Origin: Elsinoe ampelina
Taxonomy: Eukaryota
Direction of reading: 5' to 3'
Assembly (NCBI GenBank): GCA_010093995.1
Contig: ML992517.1
Location: forward strand, 200,677-264,676
DNA length: 64,000 nucleotides
The notes beneath the pieces are model-generated. The model worked only from the letters and a program-made list of their open reading frames with translations. It searched no databases and was not told where the DNA came from. A program made the translations under genes and the position numbers. Of the stretch, positions 2,748 through 64,000 are shown piece by piece (position 1 is the first letter of the stretch; each line of letters opens with the position of its first letter).

Positions 2748-3095
2748 GCGACGCCCCTCCAGATCCAGATACACCCCCACTTGTCCGACTTCAGGCAAGC
2801 AACGTCCTACCAGATATAGCATACGACGTCTTTGCCGATCCAGGCAGGCGACGTCCCACCGTATCCAGCCAAGCGGCGTCCTACCCAATCCACATAGGCG
2901 AAATCCTCTCCGACTCCAGGCGGACGACATCCTACCAGATCCAGACAGGCGACTCCTACCAGATCCAGACAAGCGACGTTCTTCCAGATCCACACAAGCG
3001 ACGTCCTACCAGATCCACACAAGCGACGTTCTATCAGATCCACACAAGCGACATTCTATCAGATCCACACAAGCGACGCCCTACCAGATTCAGGC
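2748..3095 (+). repeat. 25-bp minisatellite, about 13-14 degenerate copies, consensus AGATCCACACAAGCGACGTCCTACC
   Basis: Near-perfect units at 2961-2985, 2986-3010, 3011-3035, 3036-3060 and 3061-3085. Copies degenerate progressively leftwards to about 2750. No unique spacers. Confidence 0.92.
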
Positions 3096-50822: not shown

Positions 50823-53800
50823 CTACCTCATCAGAAATTTCTCCGACGTCTCAAACAACACATGCCGGTACTGTTCCTGCCACTGCCTGGCTCTTCTCGT
50901 CTTGTCGCCTGGCGGTCTTTTGTCCGTGTCCGCTTTTTCCCTCTGCAACTCGTTCGCCTTGGGTGTACGAGGCGCAAGAATGGGATCATGCCGTCTCTCC
51001 GTATCATCGTCTGAAGCAGATACGTCGTCCTTGCCAGCGTACTTGGGAAGTATGACCGAAAACTTGCTCAGCTGGTCTACCTTTGACAGAGCGAATTGGC
51101 AAAAGTATGCGACAAGCGCAGATGTAGCCTTTGCCTGATTCTGCGATGCCAGAACATGGTACTCCGGGAGCTCTGTGATAGTCGGAAGCTTTAGACTGGG
51201 TTGATATTCAGCCCCGTTCATTCCCGATTCGTTCATGTTCAGCAGATATGGATAGACCAGAGGTAACATAAGCTTGCCGATCTGTGTATAGTATTTGGTC
51301 TTCAAGTCATCTGACTTCGCTCGCTCCATCAATTCGGTGAGCATCTCCATTATACCAGGTCGAACTACCAGGCAATTTGGCGGCACCGAGTTTGTCTTGG
51401 ACTTTTCCAGTTCTGCTGCGAACTTTTGCACAATGGTCAAAGCCCGATGTGGTTCCTCGATGAAGACTTCATCCACAATGAGAGCAGCATATCCTCTTGT
51501 AAAGATGCGAGTGAGCGTCATCCGCTGGCTATCGACCGCAGCTAAAGTCGAAGTAATTGCCACTTTTGTTTCGAATCTCAAATGATTGATCGAGGCCCGG
51601 TGCAGTGCAATATTCATAAAGGGGATTTGCCAGTAGTTGGTGATCGTCGGATACCAGATCACGGTACCGCCGATGAATTCTTGCTTCTCGCTAAGAGCCT
51701 TATCAATAAACACCCTCCAAGATCCTGGTTCCAGTGTAGTCATCACTTGAGCTTCTTGTTCTTCAAGAAGCGTCTTCAATGCGTTCATTTCATGCTCCAA
51801 ATCAAGCGGAAACATGAGGTAAACCAGCTTCCGGAGTTTCCTGCCTCCTACAGAACAGAACAGAAGCTCCGGATTCAGATCGATCGGAGCGATGTCGGGA
51901 ACGGAGGCTCTCCCTGCTACAGTGTTGAATGGTACCTGGAATGGACCAGGTAGGGTTGTCATGTCGAACGCAATCAGCGATAGTGGTGCTGCGATCGAGC
52001 TGCCACTACATGCAGCATGAAGTGAATGCCAGGTCTCATCATCCGGAGCGTGCACGACCACCATCACTTCCCCCACATAGGCGATAGCACCTACCAGGTT
52101 TTCTAGCAGATGACTGCTGAGATTCTGCAGCTGATCCTTTGTCAAATCATCAGCCGCGTCAATGAAGCCTTCATGTGTCGGCTTATGTGCGTCTTGAAAT
52201 CGCCAAGCAAGGTCTGCGGCAAAGCATAGGTTCTCAAAAGCAAGCTCGCCTGCTCTATAGGCAAGACTTGTCGCTATGAGCACCGTAGAATCTGCGAAAG
52301 CAATGTTGACAGCGAGACTGTCTGGCGAATTGCTCACAGGGAAGCGAAGCTTCGTTGCGATGGTTGCCGGCTCGAAAAGCTCACCGTCTGACGCATCATT
52401 GACGATACTCTCCGGCGACGCGACGGGGTGCCGTTCACCCTCTGGTACTGACGGATCCCAGAGAACATGGTAGAGGTCGCAATCCTCGGCCGAGTATTCA
52501 CAGTGTCCAGATTTCCAAGCCGGACAGGTCATGGGATATTTCAAGAATGCTGCGTCGCCACCCGAGAAGGGGCAGTGGTGGTACAAGCAGAGTGCCTCAC
52601 TAAAGATACAGCTGCCTCTCTCCGCCCAATGCTTACAGGGATCTGACATTTTGAAACCGACAAAGGTGCGACATGCATGTGCATACTCGCATGATCTGCC
52701 AGGCCTAGGCGTACACCTGTCTCGCAGCCAGAAACGACAAGTTATGTCCTTCTTCTCTCGAGGAGGCGGACCATACCTCTCAACATACGTCGCCATCTTT
52801 TGCGCGTAGGTCATAGAGGATCGAGCAATTCCAGACGAGGGACTGAGATTGTCGGGCGTAGAAACGGAGGCTTGCCCACCGTTCTGGCGCTCCCAACGTT
52901 GCAAGGCGGAAAATGCTGCCGCTGACAATTGTCCACGCAAAGCTGCAGAGTATGTACCTCTCGCAGGTGAAGCTGAAGGCGGGTAGATATTCCTTTCATT
53001 AGGTCGGCAATGATATCGATCGCAAAGCTCATCCCCAAATTTGCATCTACCATTCACCCATAGAGCACAGGTCGAGTGGGTTTTGGCTTCCCACTTATCT
53101 GTCAATTCGTGAAGATAATGGCACTCTTCGCCAAACTTGCAAGCGCCTTGCTTCAGCCAGCGTCGACATGTTGCCGGCCTCTTTGCTCTGATTATGCTGG
53201 CTGTACGAGTACCAGGCTCATCACCCCAGAGATTCGCACGTCTCTCATCATCGGAGACAGAGTAGTCATTAGGACTGTAAGAGGTCTGTCCCAAATCGTT
53301 TGGAGAGAAGTCAGCGGCTCGCTGCGCCGCTCGGACTACTTCACCCGTCTTTGGATCGATGATGTCGAGACTGTCTGCATCAGGCCTCTCGTGATTCTGC
53401 ATATATTTTCGATGGATATTTTGCCGCCTTAATGACCATGCATTCGCAGCGACACCAGGATCGCCATCCTCGCCGATCTTGTTGCTCTTCCGGCGCTCGA
53501 CTGGCCTAGATGTCATGCTGATACCGGATGTCCGAGTACGGACGAATGTCTTGGTAGGGGTGGCTGTGCTGGCAGATGCCCCGCTAGGTGAATCCGTAGC
53601 TATAGGGCCAATAGAGCGTGGTATAGCAGTATGGATACGAGCAGGCGTCTTAGACGGCTCTTCGCCATCGGGTTGATCAGGCCGGTCATTCTGGCTTGAA
53701 CCACCAAAAAGAGAGCCGTCAGACATAGCGTCGTCCATGTCGAGATCAGGCACCGACAGTCCGGTGGCAGGATTAGAGACACCGATCTCTGTAGGCCGAG

Positions 53801-54647
53801 TGATACCTGATGCCTGAATCATGTTGCTGTCCTTCCGAGAAGCTTTGCTGAGGTCGCTTATCAATTGGTCGTGCGGTGTGGGCTCTTCGGAAGCCGAAAG
53901 GATTTGTCTGCTGTCGACAGCTGTATCTTCCGACTGTGAGATGCTCTTGGATGACTTTGTCACCATGTCTATGGCGTCTTCTGAAAGTCGTCTAGCAGCT
54001 TTGATACCATCTCGATTCTCTCCTTCGGTGTCAACCTCAGGCTGGGAATTCGTTGACGCAATCGCTGACAATTCGTCCTCTGAATCAGTTTGCGCAGCCA
54101 ACTGCTTTCGGCCTCGGACGAGTTTGCGTTTCTTGACAGGGCTACCAAGCTCGCCCTCTGAGTCGTTTTGTATAGTCACCCCGTTCCGGGAAGTTCGTTT
54201 GACAGCAACTCCCCGAGTTCGTTTTGGTCTAGCTGGAGAAGCTCGCTCTCTAGCATTTCGGGCCTCTTCGGCTCGAGCTTGTGCCTGGCGTAGTCGTTCT
54301 CGTCTTTGGCGTAGTCGTTCGCGACGATCCAGCCGGTTTTGTCGTTCTTGCTCGGCTCTTCTGATTTGGGCGTTAATGTCTTTGACGTCCACATCCTTAA
54401 GTTCACCCTTCTTGAGCTTCACCTGCCGTTCCCTCCACAGAAGAGGTACGGGTTCGTCTCCGAAGGAATGGCGTGGCTCCCATGTACATTGATCAAGGTC
54501 ATATCCCACCCACTTTGCGAGATACAGGACTTTGTCCCCAAATCGACGTGCAGCGAGAATGTCTTCAATCTCGTACTCCCTCTCAAATACAGTGTCCTGC
54601 GAACCTATTGACGCGCAGTCATCTTCATCGCTATCGCTGGACGACAT
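50823..54647 (-). CDS. Chromodomain + five CCCH zinc-finger protein (Chp1-like architecture)
   Basis: N-terminal chromodomain YEIEDILA...YLAKWVGYDLDQCTWEP; CCCH fingers CRRWLKQGACKFGEECHYLH, CALWVNGRCKFGDELCDRYH, CRFWLRDRCTPRPGRSCEYAH, CKHWAERGSCIFSEALCLYHH, CPAWKSGHCEYSAEDCDLYH; globular C-terminal region. Confidence 0.85.
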   Translation of the reverse strand: MSSSDSDEDDCASIGSQDTVFEREYEIEDILAARRFGDKVLYLAKWVGYDLDQCTWEPRHSFGDEPVPLLWRERQVKLKKGELKDVDVKDINAQIRRAEQERQNRLDRRERLRQRRERLRQAQARAEEARNARERASPARPKRTRGVAVKRTSRNGVTIQNDSEGELGSPVKKRKLVRGRKQLAAQTDSEDELSAIASTNSQPEVDTEGENRDGIKAARRLSEDAIDMVTKSSKSISQSEDTAVDSRQILSASEEPTPHDQLISDLSKASRKDSNMIQASGITRPTEIGVSNPATGLSVPDLDMDDAMSDGSLFGGSSQNDRPDQPDGEEPSKTPARIHTAIPRSIGPIATDSPSGASASTATPTKTFVRTRTSGISMTSRPVERRKSNKIGEDGDPGVAANAWSLRRQNIHRKYMQNHERPDADSLDIIDPKTGEVVRAAQRAADFSPNDLGQTSYSPNDYSVSDDERRANLWGDEPGTRTASIIRAKRPATCRRWLKQGACKFGEECHYLHELTDKWEAKTHSTCALWVNGRCKFGDELCDRYHCRPNERNIYPPSASPARGTYSAALRGQLSAAAFSALQRWERQNGGQASVSTPDNLSPSSGIARSSMTYAQKMATYVERYGPPPREKKDITCRFWLRDRCTPRPGRSCEYAHACRTFVGFKMSDPCKHWAERGSCIFSEALCLYHHCPFSGGDAAFLKYPMTCPAWKSGHCEYSAEDCDLYHVLWDPSVPEGERHPVASPESIVNDASDGELFEPATIATKLRFPVSNSPDSLAVNIAFADSTVLIATSLAYRAGELAFENLCFAADLAWRFQDAHKPTHEGFIDAADDLTKDQLQNLSSHLLENLVGAIAYVGEVMVVVHAPDDETWHSLHAACSGSSIAAPLSLIAFDMTTLPGPFQVPFNTVAGRASVPDIAPIDLNPELLFCSVGGRKLRKLVYLMFPLDLEHEMNALKTLLEEQEAQVMTTLEPGSWRVFIDKALSEKQEFIGGTVIWYPTITNYWQIPFMNIALHRASINHLRFETKVAITSTLAAVDSQRMTLTRIFTRGYAALIVDEVFIEEPHRALTIVQKFAAELEKSKTNSVPPNCLVVRPGIMEMLTELMERAKSDDLKTKYYTQIGKLMLPLVYPYLLNMNESGMNGAEYQPSLKLPTITELPEYHVLASQNQAKATSALVAYFCQFALSKVDQLSKFSVILPKYAGKDDVSASDDDTERRHDPILAPRTPKANELQREKADTDKRPPGDKTRRARQWQEQYRHVLFETSEKFLMR

Positions 54648-55252
54648 AGTCCATTCATGAAGATGTGCAACTCCGCGAGGTGAGTTGCTAGCTCGGCTGA
54701 GGCGGAGCGACCTCGGCTGAGGTGGGTCCTGAGATCATATAATTGGCTGGAATTTTAGGCAGCAGCCTTGGCGGTTAGCGTTAGGGTTCAAGCTGAATAA
54801 AACAATTTTTCTACTCTAAAGACCTTCTTTTCTTAATCTTGCTTTTTAATAGGTAAGTAACTCTATAACTATTAATTAGATTCTAGTTATTATATTAGAT
54901 AGTTCTTTAACTACTTTCTAATTAATGCAAGATAGATACGAACTAGATTCAGTTAGGATTCAGTTTAGATTAGTCATGTGATCTCGGCATTGCGGCCCGG
55001 GCTTCCGGCCGCTCTACCCTTAATATTATATATGCTTTATATACTAGCTTTCTTCTTCTTCTTCTAAGTCTTAATATCTTAATAAATAGACATAATTAAC
55101 TTCTTATCTTACTAGTTGTAATTACTATATCGAGACTTAGAACGACTATAACTAAGTAATAGAGCTATTAAATTATCTAGTTATTCTACTACTTATATAA
55201 CTACTAATAACTACTACTTATAAAGAATTAAAGAATTAAAGAAGAAGCTATT

Positions 55253-55716
55253 TGTCACGAACTGTCTAAACATAGCCTACGTTAGTAGTCTAAGCTAAGC
55301 TAAGAACAAGGTAGTTCTACTTCTATAGTAGTATAGCACTAAGGTAAGAGTTAGAGAAGATATATCTTATAGATAATAAAGTATAATTAGATAGTATTAT
55401 AAAGGCTAGCCTTAGTAATACTAGTGTTTACTATCTAGACAAGGTTAACTATAGTACTTATATAAGGTAAGGACTATTTCTATATACTTATATTCTCTAT
55501 TGCATACTCTATATACTCTATATACTCTATAGCGAAAGCTAGGGGCAGTATAGAGTACATGTCTACTAGTAACCTATACGCTCTATAGTCTCTAGAGTAG
55601 AGCTACTAGAGAAGATAGAGAACTAGGTAAATATCGGGCTAGGTCACGTAATAACCTTAGTAGTTTAATTAGTCCTAATATCCCTATACTCTAGCTTGTT
55701 CTACTAGTTCGTAACA
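55253..55716 (-). repeat. 3' LTR (TG...CA)
   Basis: Begins TGTCACGAAC, ends GTTCGTAACA (terminal inverted repeat); collinear with 61809-62272. Confidence 0.95.
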
Positions 55717-55790
55717 TTACTCTTCTCCTTTAATCGAGTTGTCCTAATAAGTAAGTATTCTTCTTTGTCTTTACGCGCTATATACTAAAT

Positions 55791-56339
55791 ATATCTCCTA
55801 GTTGTCGAAGGCATAGTAAATCTAGCATATCCGCACGAAAGAATCTCTTAGAGTTTATTAAACTATTTAGAACTAATATACTATAGGCTTATTCTTGTTA
55901 CAAATCGAAGAGGCTAGACTATAAGGTCTATATTTAGTTAGGTATCTATAGCTAGTATATCGTAAGTAACTACTCTAGTTATAATATTTAGGTAATAAAA
56001 TCGGAATAGTAGCGTCTCTAGTCTAAGTATATTCGTTTACGAAAGGAATTAGTTATAGCTAAGGCTACTAGAAAGGAAGCTAAAGAGGCTTATAAAAAGG
56101 CAAAAGAGGCTTGTTAAAGAGCTATAGGCGATAAGCTTTACCTATATAAAGAGATATAGAAATTAGAGAATAAGGCGAAGAAAGTAATCTCTCTAGAGGA
56201 GACTTATATTCGAGTCCTAGAGTAGGAGAAAATACTATTATTAGTAAATCCCGTCCTACTATAGGATTAGTAATTATTTATGCCTAACTCCGACTAGGGT
56301 TCTCTATTTAGCAACGATTAAGATGCTTCTATTAGCTAA
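55791..56339 (+). pseudogene. RIP-decayed antisense ORF within the retrotransposon: Zn2Cys6-like Cys spacing plus coiled coil
   Basis: One frame from ATA(ATG) 55791 has six TAT/TAC codons spaced x2-x6-x8-x2-x7 (about 55890-55982), followed by RLRKELVIAKATRKEAKEAYKKAKEA...KLENKAKKVISLEE. All stops are TAG/TAA, as expected from RIP. Confidence 0.7.
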
Positions 56340-59300
56340 GTAACCTTCCTTAGACATTCTCGTTTTTATTTAGTGTTAAGAGTACTAGGTCTATCTAGTT
56401 AGTTTACTTAGGATAGGTTCTTATTCTAGTAATCTAGAATTGTTTACGAGGTAAGGTACTCCTCTAGTTCCTATATTACTTCGCTATACTAATGTCCCTT
56501 CTAGTAAATAAGGTAGTAGCGTTTTTCTTTAATAAGTTTATAACGTAAAACCCTTTCGATTTTATACTATAGCTCCTATGTTTCTTTATCTAGTTCGATA
56601 GGTCTAGGTATAGTATTCTATAGTGCTTTCTCTAGTAGTAATATATAAAAGACTAAATAGATCCTTATATGTCTTAGTAGTTCTAGTTTATATACGTTCT
56701 TGTTTTTCTTTTCTAGAATCTTAAAGAGTCCTAGTTTAGTATAGTTAAGTTTCTTACTTAGTTGTTTCGTTTTAATGTTTTTACTAAAGAGATAAACTTT
56801 CTCTCTCTCTTATAGAATTAGTCCTATAATTCTCTTCTAGTTAGTAAACTCTACTATTCTTTATAATATAAATGCTATATCGTAGTATAGCTAGTTATAT
56901 AGTTTCTTAATGTTAGCTACTAGTATATTAGTATCCTCGGATATTAGCTTAATTCTAAGTATGTCGTAGTATAGATCTAGGTGTATTCTATAGTTTACGT
57001 AGAATAGTAAAATTCTATTTGCTAACTTTCTATTGTTAATAGCAAGCTCCGTAAGTAGTAATAGTATTATCTATAAGTCTTACTTATAGTTTAGATAGTA
57101 TTATAGGTACTACTCTAGTACTTAATTTACCTGTTTAGTCTGTCTATCCGTTTATAAATAAAAGAAGGTTAATAGCTTATGTTTAACTCCTAGTAGGTCT
57201 ATAAATAATTACTAGAATTATGACGTAAATAGCTTATCCCTATTAGTTATTAGGTCTTATAGTACTCTATATTATAAAACAATTATTCGGAGGAAGGTAA
57301 AGACTATATCCTTAGTAGTTACTATTATCTTATATAGTATAAAGTAGTAATACTTTATAAACCTATCTACTAGGACTAGAATGCTATTATACTTTACACC
57401 TATAAGAGGTTCTTCTAATAGTAGTAAAGGTCCTATAAAGTCTATTATAACTAATTACTATAGTTTGTCTAGTAGTAGTAAGAGTTATAGTAGGCTATAT
57501 AGTTTATGTCGAGAGTGTTTAGACTTGTAGCATATATTGTATATAGTAACGTATGTCTTAACATCGTTTCGAAGTTCTTTCTAGAGGTAGTTTTGTATAA
57601 TAAGTTTAATAGTCTTATTAATCCCGCTATGTCCTGCCGTTAGGTTATTATAGTATATTTAAATAACTTCTTTTTTCTGTTCTTACGTAAGCTCCTAGGT
57701 AAGGCTATATAACTACTCTACCTTTAGGTACTTATAGACTAAAGCGCCGTCCTACTACTTTAGTATAGAGGCCTCTATTACTGTTATATTTTTTAAGTAA
57801 TCTAGCTAGTAGCTAAGAGCGTCTACTTTGCTATTCTCTAATCCCTTAACATAGTAGATCTAGAAGTTATAGCTTATAAGTGTTTCTAACTATTAAACCT
57901 GTTATCTATTTAGAACCTTAGTTGTTGTCTAATATAGAAGGTTCTTATAGTTAGTATAGACTTATATAGGTAAGGTTATCTCTTCTAGGTATACTCTCTA
58001 TTTACGGAACGCTTTTATAATCGCGAGTAATTCCTTATCGTATATGTCGTAGTTAAGTTTAGGTCTAGTCATTTTTCGTAAGTAGTATACAATTAAGTAG
58101 CGTTATTCTTCTACGTCCTTCTACGCTAGATACACTTCTATTACAAAGTCCGAAGTATCTATTTCTAGTAGTGCTTATTAGTCTAGGTTAAAGAGTACTA
58201 GGACAGGTACTATTATAAGTCTAAGCTTTAGCTCCTTAAAGGCCTACCTATAGATCTCGTTAAAGACAAAGCTAGTTTTCTTTTTCGTAAGGTTAGATAT
58301 TAGTATAGCTACCTTAGAGAATCCTTTAATAAACTTATAGTAGTAGTTAAAGAACTCTAGTAGCGCTTAAACCTCCTTAACTATTGTAGGTTCTAGCTAG
58401 TTATTTACTAACTTAATCTTCTTCGGATTAGGTCTAATACTATTAGTAGATATAATATAGCCTAGAAATTATATCTTATGTTTATAAAACTCGCACTTAG
58501 AGAGCTTTACTAGTAAGTCTTTTTCTTTTAGTTTCTATAGCACTTTATAAATATATTCTATATATTTGTCGTACGTCTTTAAGAAGATAATAATATTATC
58601 TAAATATACTAAGATAAAGTTATTAAGGTATTCTTGTAGAGTGTTATTAATTAACTCTTAGAAGGTTATAAAGGCGTTAGTTAACCTAAAGAGCATAACG
58701 AGGTACTTATATAGACTCTATTACGTCCTAAAAGCCGTTTTCTACTCCTTACTCTCCTTTATTCGTACTTAATAATAGGCATCCTTAATATTAATCGCGG
58801 TGAACTATTTAGCTCTAAGTAGTTAGTCTTAAAGTTTGTTAATCCTTAGTAGAGGATAGTAATTCTTCCTAGTAAGTGTATTAAGTTTCTAGTAATTAAT
58901 GTATATTTATAACGTTCTATCCTTTTTAGGTGTAAAAAGCACTCTATACGCAATAGGTGATTTTAATAGTTATATAAATTCTTTAAGTAAGTACTTATCG
59001 ATATAGTCCTTAAGGACGTTCTCTTCTTGTTTCGATAGTAGTATAAGACCTTAATAGTGTATTAGGGATTTACTCTCTTTAAAGAGTATTTCGTAATTCT
59101 ATAGTTTATATTAAAGTAAGGCTACGATGCCTTCTCTTTCTTTAAACAAGTCCTTAAAGTCTTTATATTCTAGCGGAAGTGCTTAATTACTTACGCTAGC
59201 GATAGCTCTAACTATTAGTTATACCTATACTATCCTTGTAGTTAGTATCTATAGAGCTGATTATACTCCCTATGTCCTATAATTATACTTAGGGAATTCG

Positions 59301-61808
59301 AGTGTTTCTTTAATCTAGTCTACGTCTAGATTATGTTATTAAAGCTAGTCTATACTAAGTACTATATTATACTACATGTTAACTATATCAATTAATTGTT
59401 TTTCTATATATGTTTTAATTTAGATTATAACGTTTTATAGTTCCTAAGTAACTTTCCTGTTCTTCCCTATAGAGGTTCTATCCGCTATAGTAAGTAGGTA
59501 AGGTAACTCCTTCTAGTATTAATAAGGTTTAAGCTAATTAGCAACTATTATAGAGACGTAGCTATAGTTAGCTCCTAAATCTATTATTGCTCTTACCTTA
59601 CTCTCTTATATTTTAACTTCTAGTATAAAGTAGTTTAATATATAGATCTTTATTATATTAAGGCTTTAGCTAGTGTTATTATCTTACCTTATTAGGCAAC
59701 AACTAGCTAGTTTTTTGTTATTATAGCTCCTTAGATAAGTAGCTAATTCCTTCCTATATGTATCTACTATTAGTACTATATCTATTAGGCAAGTTGTGTT
59801 TTATTGCTATTTAATATAGTAAGGTAAACTTCTAGCGCCTAAGTCCCTTAGTAACTATAAAGTCTAATAATTCTCTACTAGTCGCACTAAGTAGTGTTAT
59901 ACACCTATATTAGTATAACTATTCCTTCCGGGTATAGCTAGGCATTAGTATTAAAGACAAAAACAAGTTATGTAGATTTATCTTATCGTGTCCTATTCTA
60001 GTAGTAGATGTATATTATTATATAATTCCTCTATATCCCTATAAGGTATACTTTAAGTCGTCTACCTAGTAGTAGTACGTCGTTGTTGTTGTTGTTAGAT
60101 AAGTCTTTATCTATGTTATTACATTATAGTTGTTTAGTGTATTCTTCGTTATATTTCTCTTCGTCGCTACTACCTCTAGTATAGTTATAGTTAGTAAGGC
60201 TACACTAAGTACATTCCTGTACTTAGCTATAGGGAATAGTACTACCTATTTCGATTACTAAGAAGTCTGTAGTGTATTTAAGACTAATAGTCTCTTCTCT
60301 AAGTACATTGTATAAGTAAATAGTATAGTACTATTTACAATCTAGATTTATGTATTTCTAGAGCGATATATAATATGCCTTTCCTTATAGTACGCTATAA
60401 GGGCTAAAGGTAAGGCTACTATATTGTCGTATAGCACTTACGCTCTAATACTTCGTCTTAATAATTGTATATTAGTAATTATCGCTAACTACCTTCTAAG
60501 GTTAGTTAATGTTACTACTAATTATAGAGAGCTCTTCTAAGTTAGGTTCCTAGTTTAGCTATTTCGTTAGTTATCTACGCTTAAATAGCTTATATAGAAA
60601 CTAACTAGATCCCTACTTGTCTAATAAGTGAATATAACAAGAGTTATCGTAATATACTATCTATAATAGCATTACGTGTTAGCTTTGTTATTTGCTATTA
60701 GTCGTAGAGATATTAAGCGTAACATCCGGAGAGGATTCTACTACCTCTCGAGTTATTATAGACTTCTTCTATATTTCCTCGCCTACGCTAAAGGTCGTTA
60801 GGTCTTCTATAGTAGTGTTAGCCTTTTTCTCTACTAGCCCGGCAACTATTATATATAATCTATTAGCTAGCGCCCCTTGTTAGTAGTCCCTAGCCTAATA
60901 CCTAGGTCTTTTATACTTAAAATATAGATTATCTTGTCTATACTTCTCTCTCTCTTTTCTACTAAGGAACTTTCCTCTACGACTTTAGCCTTGTGTCTAT
61001 AAGAGGCAACCTTCGCGTATAGCGTTAAGTTCTATAGAGTCTCTATAGTTTCGGGAGAAACGCGTATATCTAGTGTTTGCCTTATATCCTCTACGACGTT
61101 CTATACGTTATTTGTAAAGTTAGTTATTAATAGCAATCGTAGTATCTACTAGTTCTTAGAGGCTATTAGGTAGCTTAAGTATTATTTAGTCCTTAACTAA
61201 GTCGCTTAGTCCTTAGTAGAATACTAAATGTTTAGCACTATTATTCTAGTCTAGGTATATTATAAGTTATTAGAACTAGGAGTAGTACTAGGCTATAGAC
61301 CTATGTTATTATAGTTATTAGATCTTCGTCGTAGCAATGTATTCCTTATTAGATACGTTAAAGACTTACTTAATCTTTACCTAGAAGATACTAAAGCTCT
61401 TAAAGATAGCCTTTATATCTAGGCCTAGTTATCTATCTAGGTAGCTACTTATATAAGGCTCGAACTACCTAAAGGTAGCGCCCTTAAGGTGTATCCTAGT
61501 ATAGAGGACCTTTACTACGTCGTTAGCGTACTTGTCTCTCTCTAGAGCGAAGAAGGCTTTAAGTTAAATAAGAAAGCGCCTTAAGTAAGCGTAGTCCCTA
61601 TAGAAGAGTTCTACTTCTAACTTAGGCTTACTCTATTCTTCTATACTAATAGACCTTCTATGTTCGCCCGAGGTTAAACTAGTAGTAGACATGTTGTTAA
61701 TAGTAAGCTTTTCTAGCTTACTAGCAATTAAAGATGCTAATAGTAACTTAGAGCGAGAGTTACTTATTAACCTTATAGCGTGCTATGCTATAGTAAGGGT
61801 AGTTAAAA

Positions 61809-62272
61809 TATTACGAACTGTCTAAATATAGCCTACGTTAGTAGTCTAAGCTAAGCTAAGAACGAGGTAGTTCTACTTCTATAGTAGTATAGTACTAAGG
61901 TAAGAGTTAGAGAAGGTATATCTTATAGATAATAAAGTATAATTAGATAGTATTACAAAGGCTAGCCTTAGTAATACTAGTGTTTGCTATCTAGACGAGG
62001 TTAACTATAGTACTTATATAAGGTAAGGACTATTTCTATATACTTGTGTTCTTTATCGCGTACTTTATATACTCTATATGCTCCGTAGCGAAAGCTAGGG
62101 GCAGCATAGAGTACATGTCTACTAGTAACCTACGCGCTCTATAGTCTCTAGGGTAGAGCCGCTAGAGAAGATAGAGAACCGGGTAAATGTCGGGCTAGGT
62201 TACGTAATAACCTTAGTAGTTTAATTAGTCCTAACGTCCCTACGCTCTAGCTTATCCTACTAGTTCGTAACA
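61809..62272 (-). repeat. 5' LTR
   Basis: Begins TATTACGAAC (RIP form of TGTCACGAAC), ends GTTCGTAACA; differences I checked against the other LTR are C/T or G/A transitions. Confidence 0.95.
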
Positions 62273-64000
62273 CTATTATAACTATAGTTCCCGCGTATAC
62301 TATAATAGATCCTTGCTACTACTATATAGGTTAATACTATAAACTCTAAAGATATAAGAAAAAGGTAATAAGTTAAGTTATAGACAACTCTTAAAGAAAG
62401 TAGACTACTAGCTAAAAATTTTAATATTCTCTTTGTTATATATTAACTTTTTATACTATTTTATTTATAACTAACTATGCTAAGTATAGCTTACTCTAAC
62501 TATAGTAACGACAACTATTATATAAGTAAGATCCCTCTACCCTCTACTAATAATAATAATAAACCTATCTAGTTATTCTATTATAACCTTATTCGCCTTA
62601 ATAACTCTAACCTAAAGAAGAGATTATAAGAGTTAGATAGTATAATTACTCTATGTAAGGCCTTTACCTTTATTAAGTCTACCTATAATAAATAGGTTAC
62701 TATATATAACTTAGTATATTTTAATACTCTTAATCTATATAACTAGTTAGACAACGTCCTTATTAAACTAAATATAGCTAATAGTACTACTAATAATCTT
62801 ACTACCTAGGCCGCGTACTACTTTACTAATATTAGTAAACTTAAAACTAAACTAGCCTAGCTAAGAGCTAAGATAGAACGCACTATACTAGCCTCTTCTA
62901 TATATGTATTACATTGTTAAAGAAGATACTAGACCCCGCTATCTTCTCTAGTAGTACTCTAGAATAGTTTAAGGTCTTTAAATATTAGATAAAGAATAAG
63001 ATATATACTAACGCTAACTACTTCTCTACTAAGGCTATCTAGTTTATCTACCTATACTTACGCCTCTCTAATAAAGTATATACCCTCGTTATAGACACCG
63101 CTAGTAATAATACTATTAGCGTTAATAAGACTCTTACTCTCCTAGCCTAATACTTTAAGAATCCTAACTATAAGACTATAGTACGTACTTAGTTTACTAG
63201 TCTCTTCTAGTGTAATATCTCCTTTAACTCCTTTATTAGTAAGTTTAATAAGTATACTTTCTACGCTAAGATTACTAAAGATAAATAGCTCTACTAGCTT
63301 TAGTAGAAAATATCTAGTAAGCTATATACTACCCTTATTAACTTCGATACTAATAGTCTTTCTATCTTTATTATAAAGGCTTATACTACTAATTATAATA
63401 TCTAGTAGAGTAACCTTATTACTAAGCGTACATAGGCTTTATGCCTTAGCCTAGCTATAAGCTATACCGCTACTACCTCTACTTATATATCTTATTCTAC
63501 CTCTATACTTACTACTCTAGCTACCTTCTACTCTATTACTAGAGGTGCTCTATAGCCTTTCTGTCTAACTTAGGCACTTACCTACTATATATGTAGTAAA
63601 CCTAGCTATATCTCTACTAAGTATATAGCTAGTACTTTAGAGAAGGCTACTTACGCTACTATACGCTCTATACGTATTAGTACTATAGAGGAGATATAGT
63701 AGCTCTAGAATCGCTTAGCTAAGTTAAGTAACTAAGTTAATACTAGTTCGGCTTATGAACTAGATCTAGTTTAGCCTTAGTTCGACCCTAAAATAGACTA
63801 TAAACCTACTAGTTTCTCTAGCTAGAGAAACAAGTAGCTAGAGAATAAGTCCTATTCTCTAGCGAAATAAGAGTAATTCGAGATAGATCTAGAGATATAT
63901 ACTTAATAAACAGCGTTATTAGCTACTATATCCCTGCTATTATAACTCCTATTACTATTTACAACTCTTATAATATAAGGGCTTAGTATTAGAGCGGCAC
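62273..64000 (+). mobile_element. Second RIP-decayed gypsy-type element (gag and start of pol), host of the nested insertion; left part probably 55017-55252
   Basis: Plus-strand relic KKI(P)DPAIFS(G)...IKNKIYTNANYF...YLYLRLS at about 62920-63070, zinc knuckle TAC-TAT-ATA-TGT-AGT-AAA-CCT-AGC-TAT-ATC-TCT-ACT-AAG-TAT (CX2CX4HX4C after de-RIP) at about 63583-63624, and gag-end-like GAAACAAGTAG at about 63827-63837. Confidence 0.75.

Follow-up and report, generated by a model that had tools for sequence, protein, structure and literature searches.

A RIP-killed antisense gene in an Elsinoe ampelina retrotransposon, third gene of one ascomycete Ty3/gypsy chromovirus clade

Between the integrase chromodomain and the 3′ LTR of a mutated retrotransposon in Elsinoe ampelina, the strand opposite to pol carries a frame whose Tyr codons are spaced like the cysteines of fungal binuclear zinc clusters. 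Is this frame the remnant of a gene, and what would its protein do for the element? We addressed these questions in a window of 64,000 nucleotides (the whole stretch of DNA analysed; contig ML992517.1 of assembly GCA_010093995.1, positions 200,677 to 264,676), in the other copies of the frame in this genome, and in intact relatives from elsewhere.

A degraded chromovirus and its antisense frame

The retrotransposon is a full-length, RIP-degraded Ty3/gypsy chromovirus of 7020 bp on the minus strand (55253..62272), delimited by its LTRs and by a 5-bp TSD, CTATT, on both flanks (55248-55252 and 62273-62277). Comparison of the LTRs places the 5′ LTR at 61809..62272 (-) and the 464-bp 3′ LTR at 55253..55716 (-), the latter with its U3 end toward the antisense frame. 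The LTRs have TG...CA ends, except that the outer end of the 5′ LTR has become TA, a change of the RIP type. Between the two LTRs, 34 of 464 positions differ, every one by a transition. The pol relic (56447..59722, -) comprises protease, RT, RNase H, integrase and chromodomain, and is 48% identical to the intact pol of a related locus, L121, over 1093 columns (residues 56-1147, tblastn); in L121, Pfam finds the domain order PR-RT-RH-IN plus chromodomain. A gag relic, of which the matched part lies at 61321..61584 (-), aligns with the gag piece of locus L123 at an E of 5e-8.

An intact host gene for a 1274-aa chromodomain and CCCH zinc-finger protein (50823-54647, -) has the element about 600 nt upstream, with the 3′ LTR oriented toward it, and a Sey1/RHD3 GTPase gene comes next. 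Directly after the element, a second RIP-degraded repeat extends from 62273 to 64000. At 2806-3092, in GC-rich DNA, the window also contains a tandem array with a 25-nt period, for which eight overlapping family members are listed. Locus L151 contains a more distant gypsy pol relic, about 30% identical and on the plus strand, and gave no match to the antisense gene.

The antisense frame occupies 55791..56339 on the plus strand (about 182-183 codons, with an uncertain 3′ end), tail-to-tail with pol, which runs from 59722 to 56447, and is separated from the LTR edge by 74 nt comprising the polypurine tract complement and a short leader (55717..55790, +). This is where the first-pass annotation had placed a relic frame, on the strand opposite to pol and between the chromodomain and the 3′ LTR. 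The region has a RIP-like composition (TpA/ApT about 2, GC about 30%), and the frame is interrupted by 15 internal stops, all of them TAG or TAA. Its start codon, at 55791, is ATA in the window and ATG in 87 of 101 genome copies. Tyr codons at residues 34, 37, 44, 53, 56 and 64 reproduce the x2-x6-x8-x2-x7 spacing, again as first annotated. This exact Tyr/Cys spacing arose in one of 20,000 residue shuffles of the frame, and it occurs once more in the roughly 18,000 codons of window positions 55000-64000, which are 9 kb of RIP-mutated DNA. We rejected that second pattern, at about 63456, as a chance occurrence; the stretch around it is rich in Tyr and lacks homology to the antisense gene. Since chance yields the exact pattern a second time here, the spacing by itself is a lead, and the proof has to come from the copies and the relatives.

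Searching this genome with the frame returned 112 matches; 119 loci were extracted, giving 103 distinct sequences, of which the 101 of full length are used for all copy counts. Only two indels occur in the frame among these copies. Cys is found at the six sites in 9, 21, 0, 0, 11 and 2 of the 101 copies, respectively. The earlier proposal that the Tyr codons are RIP products of Cys codons fits four sites, at which some copies have Cys. At sites 44 and 53 no copy does, whereas all 22 intact relatives that were aligned have Cys at both.

None of the 101 copies has an open frame, and none of the 61 matches obtained with an intact relative as the query is open either. The least-mutated copy (L060, G000:C86), on a 6.5-kb contig and with a GC content of 48% in the gene, has 5 stops, as against 13-20 in the other 100. 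Three stop positions of the antisense frame are shared by all 101 copies. Of the 68 TG/CA sites that the least-mutated copy keeps, 12 are lost in all 100 others, and all 101 copies have a stop at position 56473 in the pol chromodomain. The complete loss of a site is therefore common under RIP in this genome, and it is RIP saturation that leaves the genome with no open copy. The first-pass annotation named the lack of an open frame in less-mutated copies as a refutation, and within this genome that is literally the result; relatives elsewhere are open. At the 3′ end, a sense codon at 56337 is present in one of 101 copies. A pol-strand stop and the antisense-gene stop share the four bases at 56336-56339, each in 100 of 101 copies, and both of these overlapping stops may be products of RIP. 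For this family, the sequences of the relatives indicate what residues sites 44 and 53 probably had originally, and where the gene probably ended.

RIP does not make transversions, which we therefore used as a coding test. Of 32 columns with transversions, 20 are third codon positions (P=0.0007). With alignment edges trimmed, since untrimmed edges spoil the control regions, the 47 copies compared have third-position transversions in 10 of 14 columns of the antisense gene, 47 of 71 of pol and 8 of 24 of the LTR. Third positions coincide with the register of the pol-strand frame, so that the test gives coding constraint and not its strand; homology alone fixes the strand. The window copy itself is dead, and no special role falls to it.

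Intact relatives beside gypsy pol

To find relatives, we used the least-mutated copy, with X at the stops, as the query. It matched 86 proteins (best E 4e-32), of which 57 carry C-x2-C-x6-C-x8-C-x2-C-x6/7/8-C, and the remaining 29 comprise fragments, copies that are mutated in part, and long repeats with no relation to the family. The six Cys of the 22 top relatives align with the six Tyr sites of the relic, and the same six-Cys spacing is present in 104 of 106 further proteins. Among longer proteins, a search with the head domain gave 171 matches; the 120 listed are 143-280 aa long, and none of these 120 is a fusion to a long host factor. Named members among the matches listed come from Aureobasidium, Hortaea, Elsinoe and Sporormia, and none from Botrytis; two members are named ‘Zn(2)-C6 fungal-type’ in UniRef. 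In other collections, a word-index search with the least-mutated copy yielded no relatives among 128 candidates, and none of 41 pattern matches in viral_contigs was a relative. Pfam gave nothing useful on the relic frames. In the ESM Atlas, an intact relative found unnamed Ascomycota clusters with no Pfam family in common.

The first-pass annotation had also suggested looking for the frame in intact fungal chromoviruses, and open relatives do lie beside gypsy pol. At 21 of 25 metagenome loci with a relative, gypsy pol is on the opposite strand, tail-to-tail with the gene. Of the other four, two have less than 260 nt of flank and two are a single pol-less LTR element. These loci include near-duplicates (L137-L140, L141/L142 and L123/L124), and metagenome contigs of repeats can be chimeric. 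L121 has the pol closest to that of the window element among the loci (64.5%), and its antisense protein aligns with the window frame at an E of 6e-20, tail included; its pol and antisense gene overlap by 32 nt. The pol-less element (L123:4673-7086, the same in L124) is 2.4 kb long, with 330-bp LTRs that are 95% alike, and contains a 155-aa gag piece and an open antisense gene of 175 aa with a shorter tail than most relatives.

Silent sites are saturated in most pairs of relatives (dN 0.15-0.5). For the pair L134/L144, dN is 0.045 and dS is 0.46, giving a dN/dS of about 0.1, and by these sequence comparisons the protein of the antisense gene is under purifying selection. The suggestion that the element encodes an extra antisense gene is thus upheld.

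Is there any room left for the frame being no gene at all, its Tyr spacing a RIP accident in non-coding DNA or the shadow of an env-like frame on the sense strand? Such a reading could point to the chance recurrence of the spacing in the window, to the two of six sites that are never Cys in 101 copies, and to the lack of an open copy in this genome. Conversely, older ‘env-like third ORFs’ such as that of CfT-I might be shadows of the antisense gene. In the relatives, the sense-strand frames opposite the antisense gene are often long and hydrophobic, but they lack conservation, the longest varying in length and register across 17 relatives. The window frame, moreover, aligns with the intact L121 protein, and the relatives keep all six Cys at a low dN/dS. 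Intact relatives under selection rule out the chance or non-gene reading, to which we assign a negligible probability. The stretch is a RIP-killed copy of the third gene of one ascomycete Ty3/gypsy chromovirus clade.

Predicted architecture of the protein

From its sequence and structural models, the intact gene is predicted to encode a protein of ~190 aa with a basic N-terminal helix, a six-Cys head, a long coil and an acidic-aromatic tail. In the window, the relic of the six-Cys domain (residues 34-64), defined from genome copies and relatives, spans 55890..55982 (+). That of the long coiled coil (about residues 70-147), defined from models and heptad analysis, spans 55998..56230 (+). The acidic, Trp/Phe-rich tail, defined from composition, alignment and an AlphaFold2 model in which its confidence is low, spans 56231..56336 (+) and is probably disordered. 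AlphaFold2 modelled an intact relative with a mean pLDDT of 86 and a pTM of 0.59, in which an N-terminal helix is followed by a Cys domain containing two short helices, then by an 85-residue helix, and last by a tail with a pLDDT of about 55-60.

The head resembles Gal4-type factors consistently but weakly, both in sequence and in the model. Zn_clus is the commonest Pfam match in the family (22 of 67 members at E<=1, best E 0.0026), but no family member reaches the Pfam gathering cut-off for PF00172 (21 bits), and on 30 family proteins three score, at 13.6-15 bits. The Zn_clus model itself works here, with 96 host matches above the cut-off in this genome. The best 22 rows shown by Foldseek are Hap1, Gal4, Leu3, Pho7, Put3, Ppr1, CBF3 and kin; E values for the zinc-cluster rows are 0.14 or more, and no row reaches 0.001. 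VIA gave a best Z of 2.7 for the head domain (Ppr1: Z 2.4, rmsd 9.7, 54 aligned) and only generic coiled coils for the whole model (best Z 7.4). A PDB sequence search with the family profile returned coiled-coil matches only, with E values of at least 0.18.

Two hallmarks of Gal4 are a proline in the C3-C4 loop and a basic residue four after Cys2. The loop proline is found in 2 of 166 domains of the family, and Lys or Arg at Cys2+4 in 16% of them, with Lys or Arg at +2 in 69% and at +5 in 73%. A conserved [KR]VH[VI]RSG[KR] loop stands in place of the loop proline and the usual basic residue. The PROSITE pattern matches 12 of the 166. On account of the loop proline and this pattern, we do not file the family as a member of PF00172; the head is better described as a divergent six-Cys, zinc-cluster-like domain with putative zinc binding. 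The likeness to Zn(II)2Cys6 proteins that was first annotated thus survives in the spacing (the 57 of 86 matches above) and not as canonical membership.

The long coiled coil, another feature of the first-pass annotation, is well supported by the 85-residue modelled helix and by how its length varies. Between Cys6 and a C-terminal motif of the coil, the spacing changes in multiples of 7 in 79 of 82 non-redundant members, as expected of a continuous coiled coil. When two copies were modelled together, the score was 0.49, as against 0.00 for the best control, with runs agreeing on at least 94% of contacts and a pLDDT of at least 79. Among solved homodimers, 21 of 30 pass the dimer mark, and among monomers 0 of 23; for eukaryotic proteins the figure is 17 of 29, and only 1 of 7 for those with no older solved relative. 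In the modelled dimer, residues 71-144 pack antiparallel, with residue 88 contacting 123 and residue 109 contacting 109, and the interface includes an Ala that never varies (29 of 29) as well as a position held by Trp or Phe (29 of 29). Among the top 20 covarying pairs, 5 fall in the antiparallel band as against 7.4 expected, and the mean of the band is slightly higher (p 0.02). Together, the models support a coiled-coil dimer.

Over the last 50 aa, 166 members have a median net charge of -8 and a median of 4 Trp/Phe. An acidic and aromatic make-up is described for acidic activation domains (PMC10550315, PMC9241528).

The 3′ LTR, candidate roles and known systems

In 16 of 18 relatives, 44-113 nt separate the ATG from the 3′ LTR, measured to its inner edge; in the window the distance is 74 nt. 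With the ATG so near the LTR edge, and only the polypurine tract between them, U3 would be the only plausible promoter, and the 3′ LTR is likely the promoter of the antisense gene. A TATA-like box in the 3′ LTR of the window (55480..55487, -; CTATATAC on the plus strand) has counterparts in 11 of 13 relatives, beyond the U3 repeats and 172-247 nt from the LTR inner edge, and would fit the sense promoter better. In four RNA runs, chosen by guess, the sole match to the element was one 80-nt LTR piece.

The 300 nt of LTR at the inner edge hold many short repeats in the relatives. In 16 LTR stretches, GAGCA/TGCTC totals 90 occurrences, as against a mean of 16 and a maximum of 23 in shuffles; 2 of the 16 lack it. 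TCACGTGA, an E-box like the Cbf1 site, is found in U3 of 9 of the 16 related LTRs (L120-L144), at a distance of about 75-125 nt from the edge. At the site matching TCACGTGA in the window (about 55643-55651), CACGTG is present in 2 of 47 genome copies. Words of the CGG/CCG type, the sites bound by Zn(II)2Cys6 factors, do not figure among the leading LTR words in the relatives. The U3 motifs may be sites for host factors.

Across 14 elements, the more alike two antisense ORFs are, the more alike are the 6-mers of their U3 (Mantel rho 0.38, p 0.0003). Identity of the ORF does not correlate significantly with that of the pol end, either in the same 14 elements (rho 0.06) or in 16 (rho 0.13, p 0.12), and pol against U3 gives a rho of -0.06. 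The ORF-pol comparison was run on the common pol region; uneven pol pieces gave a rho of 0. L131 and L136 are 88% identical in pol and 49% in the ORF, and the ORF data reject a pol clade that has 100/100 support (p-AU 0.023), the group having been picked after both trees were seen. Because the gene tracks U3 and not pol, gene and U3 seem to form one cassette, and these sequence comparisons support its exchange between pol lineages. The ORF-U3 correlation can also follow from linkage alone, or from recombination, with no co-evolution.

The most likely role for the protein, which we hold with about even confidence, is that of an activator of its own LTR. In live elements, transcription of the antisense gene probably runs outward from the 3′ LTR, beginning at its U3 end, judging from the position of the gene, and the enhancer serving gag-pol at the 5′ LTR would drive the antisense gene at the 3′ LTR. 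The protein would dimerise through its long coiled coil, as modelled, and this small activator might then bind the multi-copy short repeats in the U3 of its own element. Once bound, it would raise transcription of the element and so close a positive feedback loop. The intact relatives resemble a miniature gene activator, which hints that the elements may bring their own switch. A fuller version, possible although on the doubtful side, is that this widespread ascomycete clade carries its own sequence-specific transactivator, a divergent zinc cluster on an antiparallel rod. Gene and U3 sites would then make a self-contained cassette, swapped between pol lineages and kept even by elements that lack pol, each cassette defining a private activation circuit comparable to those of Tax and Tas in complex retroviruses. 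If the protein does activate its own LTR, fungal retrotransposons would have regulation like that of complex retroviruses, and thousands of LTRs near host genes could respond to a factor made by the element.

Activation is not the only function that a dimeric rod could serve. An unlikely alternative is an anti-silencing or bridging factor, in which a nucleic-acid-binding head at each end of the ~11 nm rod of the modelled dimer tethers two sites (two LTRs, two nucleosomes or the cDNA ends), or bars heterochromatin from the element. The antiparallel model speaks for it, as do the invariant Ala and Trp/Phe position in the modelled interface, a coil that varies only in heptads (79 of 82) between two conserved patches, and the heavy host silencing of this element family. 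Covariation, however, gives the antiparallel register no confirmation (the 5 pairs against 7.4 above), a parallel coil fits the heptad indels equally well, and the protein has no known anti-silencing domain. We consider it distinctly unlikely that the protein acts after transcription, in RNA export or packaging, nuclear import of the cDNA complex or integration targeting, in the manner of retroviral accessory proteins. Such roles have been proposed for antisense extra ORFs (PMC7264820), the head lacks the Gal4 DNA-contact signature, and the pol-less element retains the gene; but a partner of integrase should follow pol, and the gene follows U3 instead, while the acidic-aromatic tail is better suited to activation.

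The same tail, activator-like as it is, weighs against self-restraint, in which the protein or its antisense RNA lowers transposition as copy-number control, or suppresses competitor families. This is decidedly improbable in our judgement, although dsRNA could form where the tail-to-tail genes meet or overlap, as they do by 32 nt in L121, a possibility raised in a review (PMC7264820); strong selection at the protein level argues against a role for the RNA only. Activation of the own LTR thus remains our preferred reading.

How does the gene compare with what has been described? The first-pass annotation held that standard gypsy elements encode only gag-pol, which is overstated, as a class of antisense ORFs in just this place, downstream of pol and before the 3′ LTR, has been described as aORF-3R (PMC7264820). 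Its examples in plant LTR retrotransposons are Grande gene23, RIRE2, Retand and PvRetro13, a regulatory role has been proposed for the class while its function is an open question, and the antisense promoter of HTLV is likewise located in the 3′ LTR (PMC7264820). The gene described here shares with aORF-3R its position, its orientation and its presence in most family copies (101 full-length copies; 21 of 25 related loci). It differs in that the aORF-3R in PMC7264820 have SMC-like and Transposase_28 domains and no six-Cys cluster, and in a start codon merely 44-113 nt from the LTR. With its head, dimer rod, activator-like tail, repeat-rich U3 and many intact natural members, the family offers a concrete candidate for the function of an aORF. 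In current annotation, its proteins appear under host ‘Zn(2)-C6’ genes or as hypothetical ones.

In fungi, the class is represented by brtn of Boty (Zhao 2011, Virology 417:248), as cited in bioRxiv 2021.04.13.439636 and PMC4227169. As described in these citing passages, brtn too is an additional gene in antisense orientation, located between pol and the 3′ LTR of a fungal gypsy element that carries a chromodomain; the passages describe no zinc cluster in it. No brtn sequence occurs among the database matches to the family. Should brtn prove homologous, the gene reported here would be already known. The literature covered, outside which lie most subscription journals and Repbase, held no account of a zinc-cluster gene in fungal gypsy elements. 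The words zinc, antisense, GAL4 and Zn2 never occur in the main text of PMC3248453, and passages of bioRxiv 2022.03.07.483234 and PMC5118889 add nothing on the gene.

Among host proteins, the family is closest in plan to Gal4, Hap1, Leu3, Put3 and Ppr1, with which it shares the six-Cys spacing (x2-x6-xn-x2-x6/8), the two short helices and the coiled coil that follows. It differs from these Zn(II)2Cys6 factors in its extra N-terminal helix, in a coil of ~75-85 residues modelled as antiparallel, whereas that of Gal4 is short and parallel, in a length of only about 190 aa, and in its location inside retrotransposons. Retroelement-encoded regulators are also found between pol and the 3′ LTR in HTLV-1 (HBZ and Tax) and in foamy viruses (Tas), with HBZ, like the gene here, antisense, and driven by the 3′ LTR. 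These are proteins of different folds from animal retroviruses, and we draw the comparison as an analogy only.
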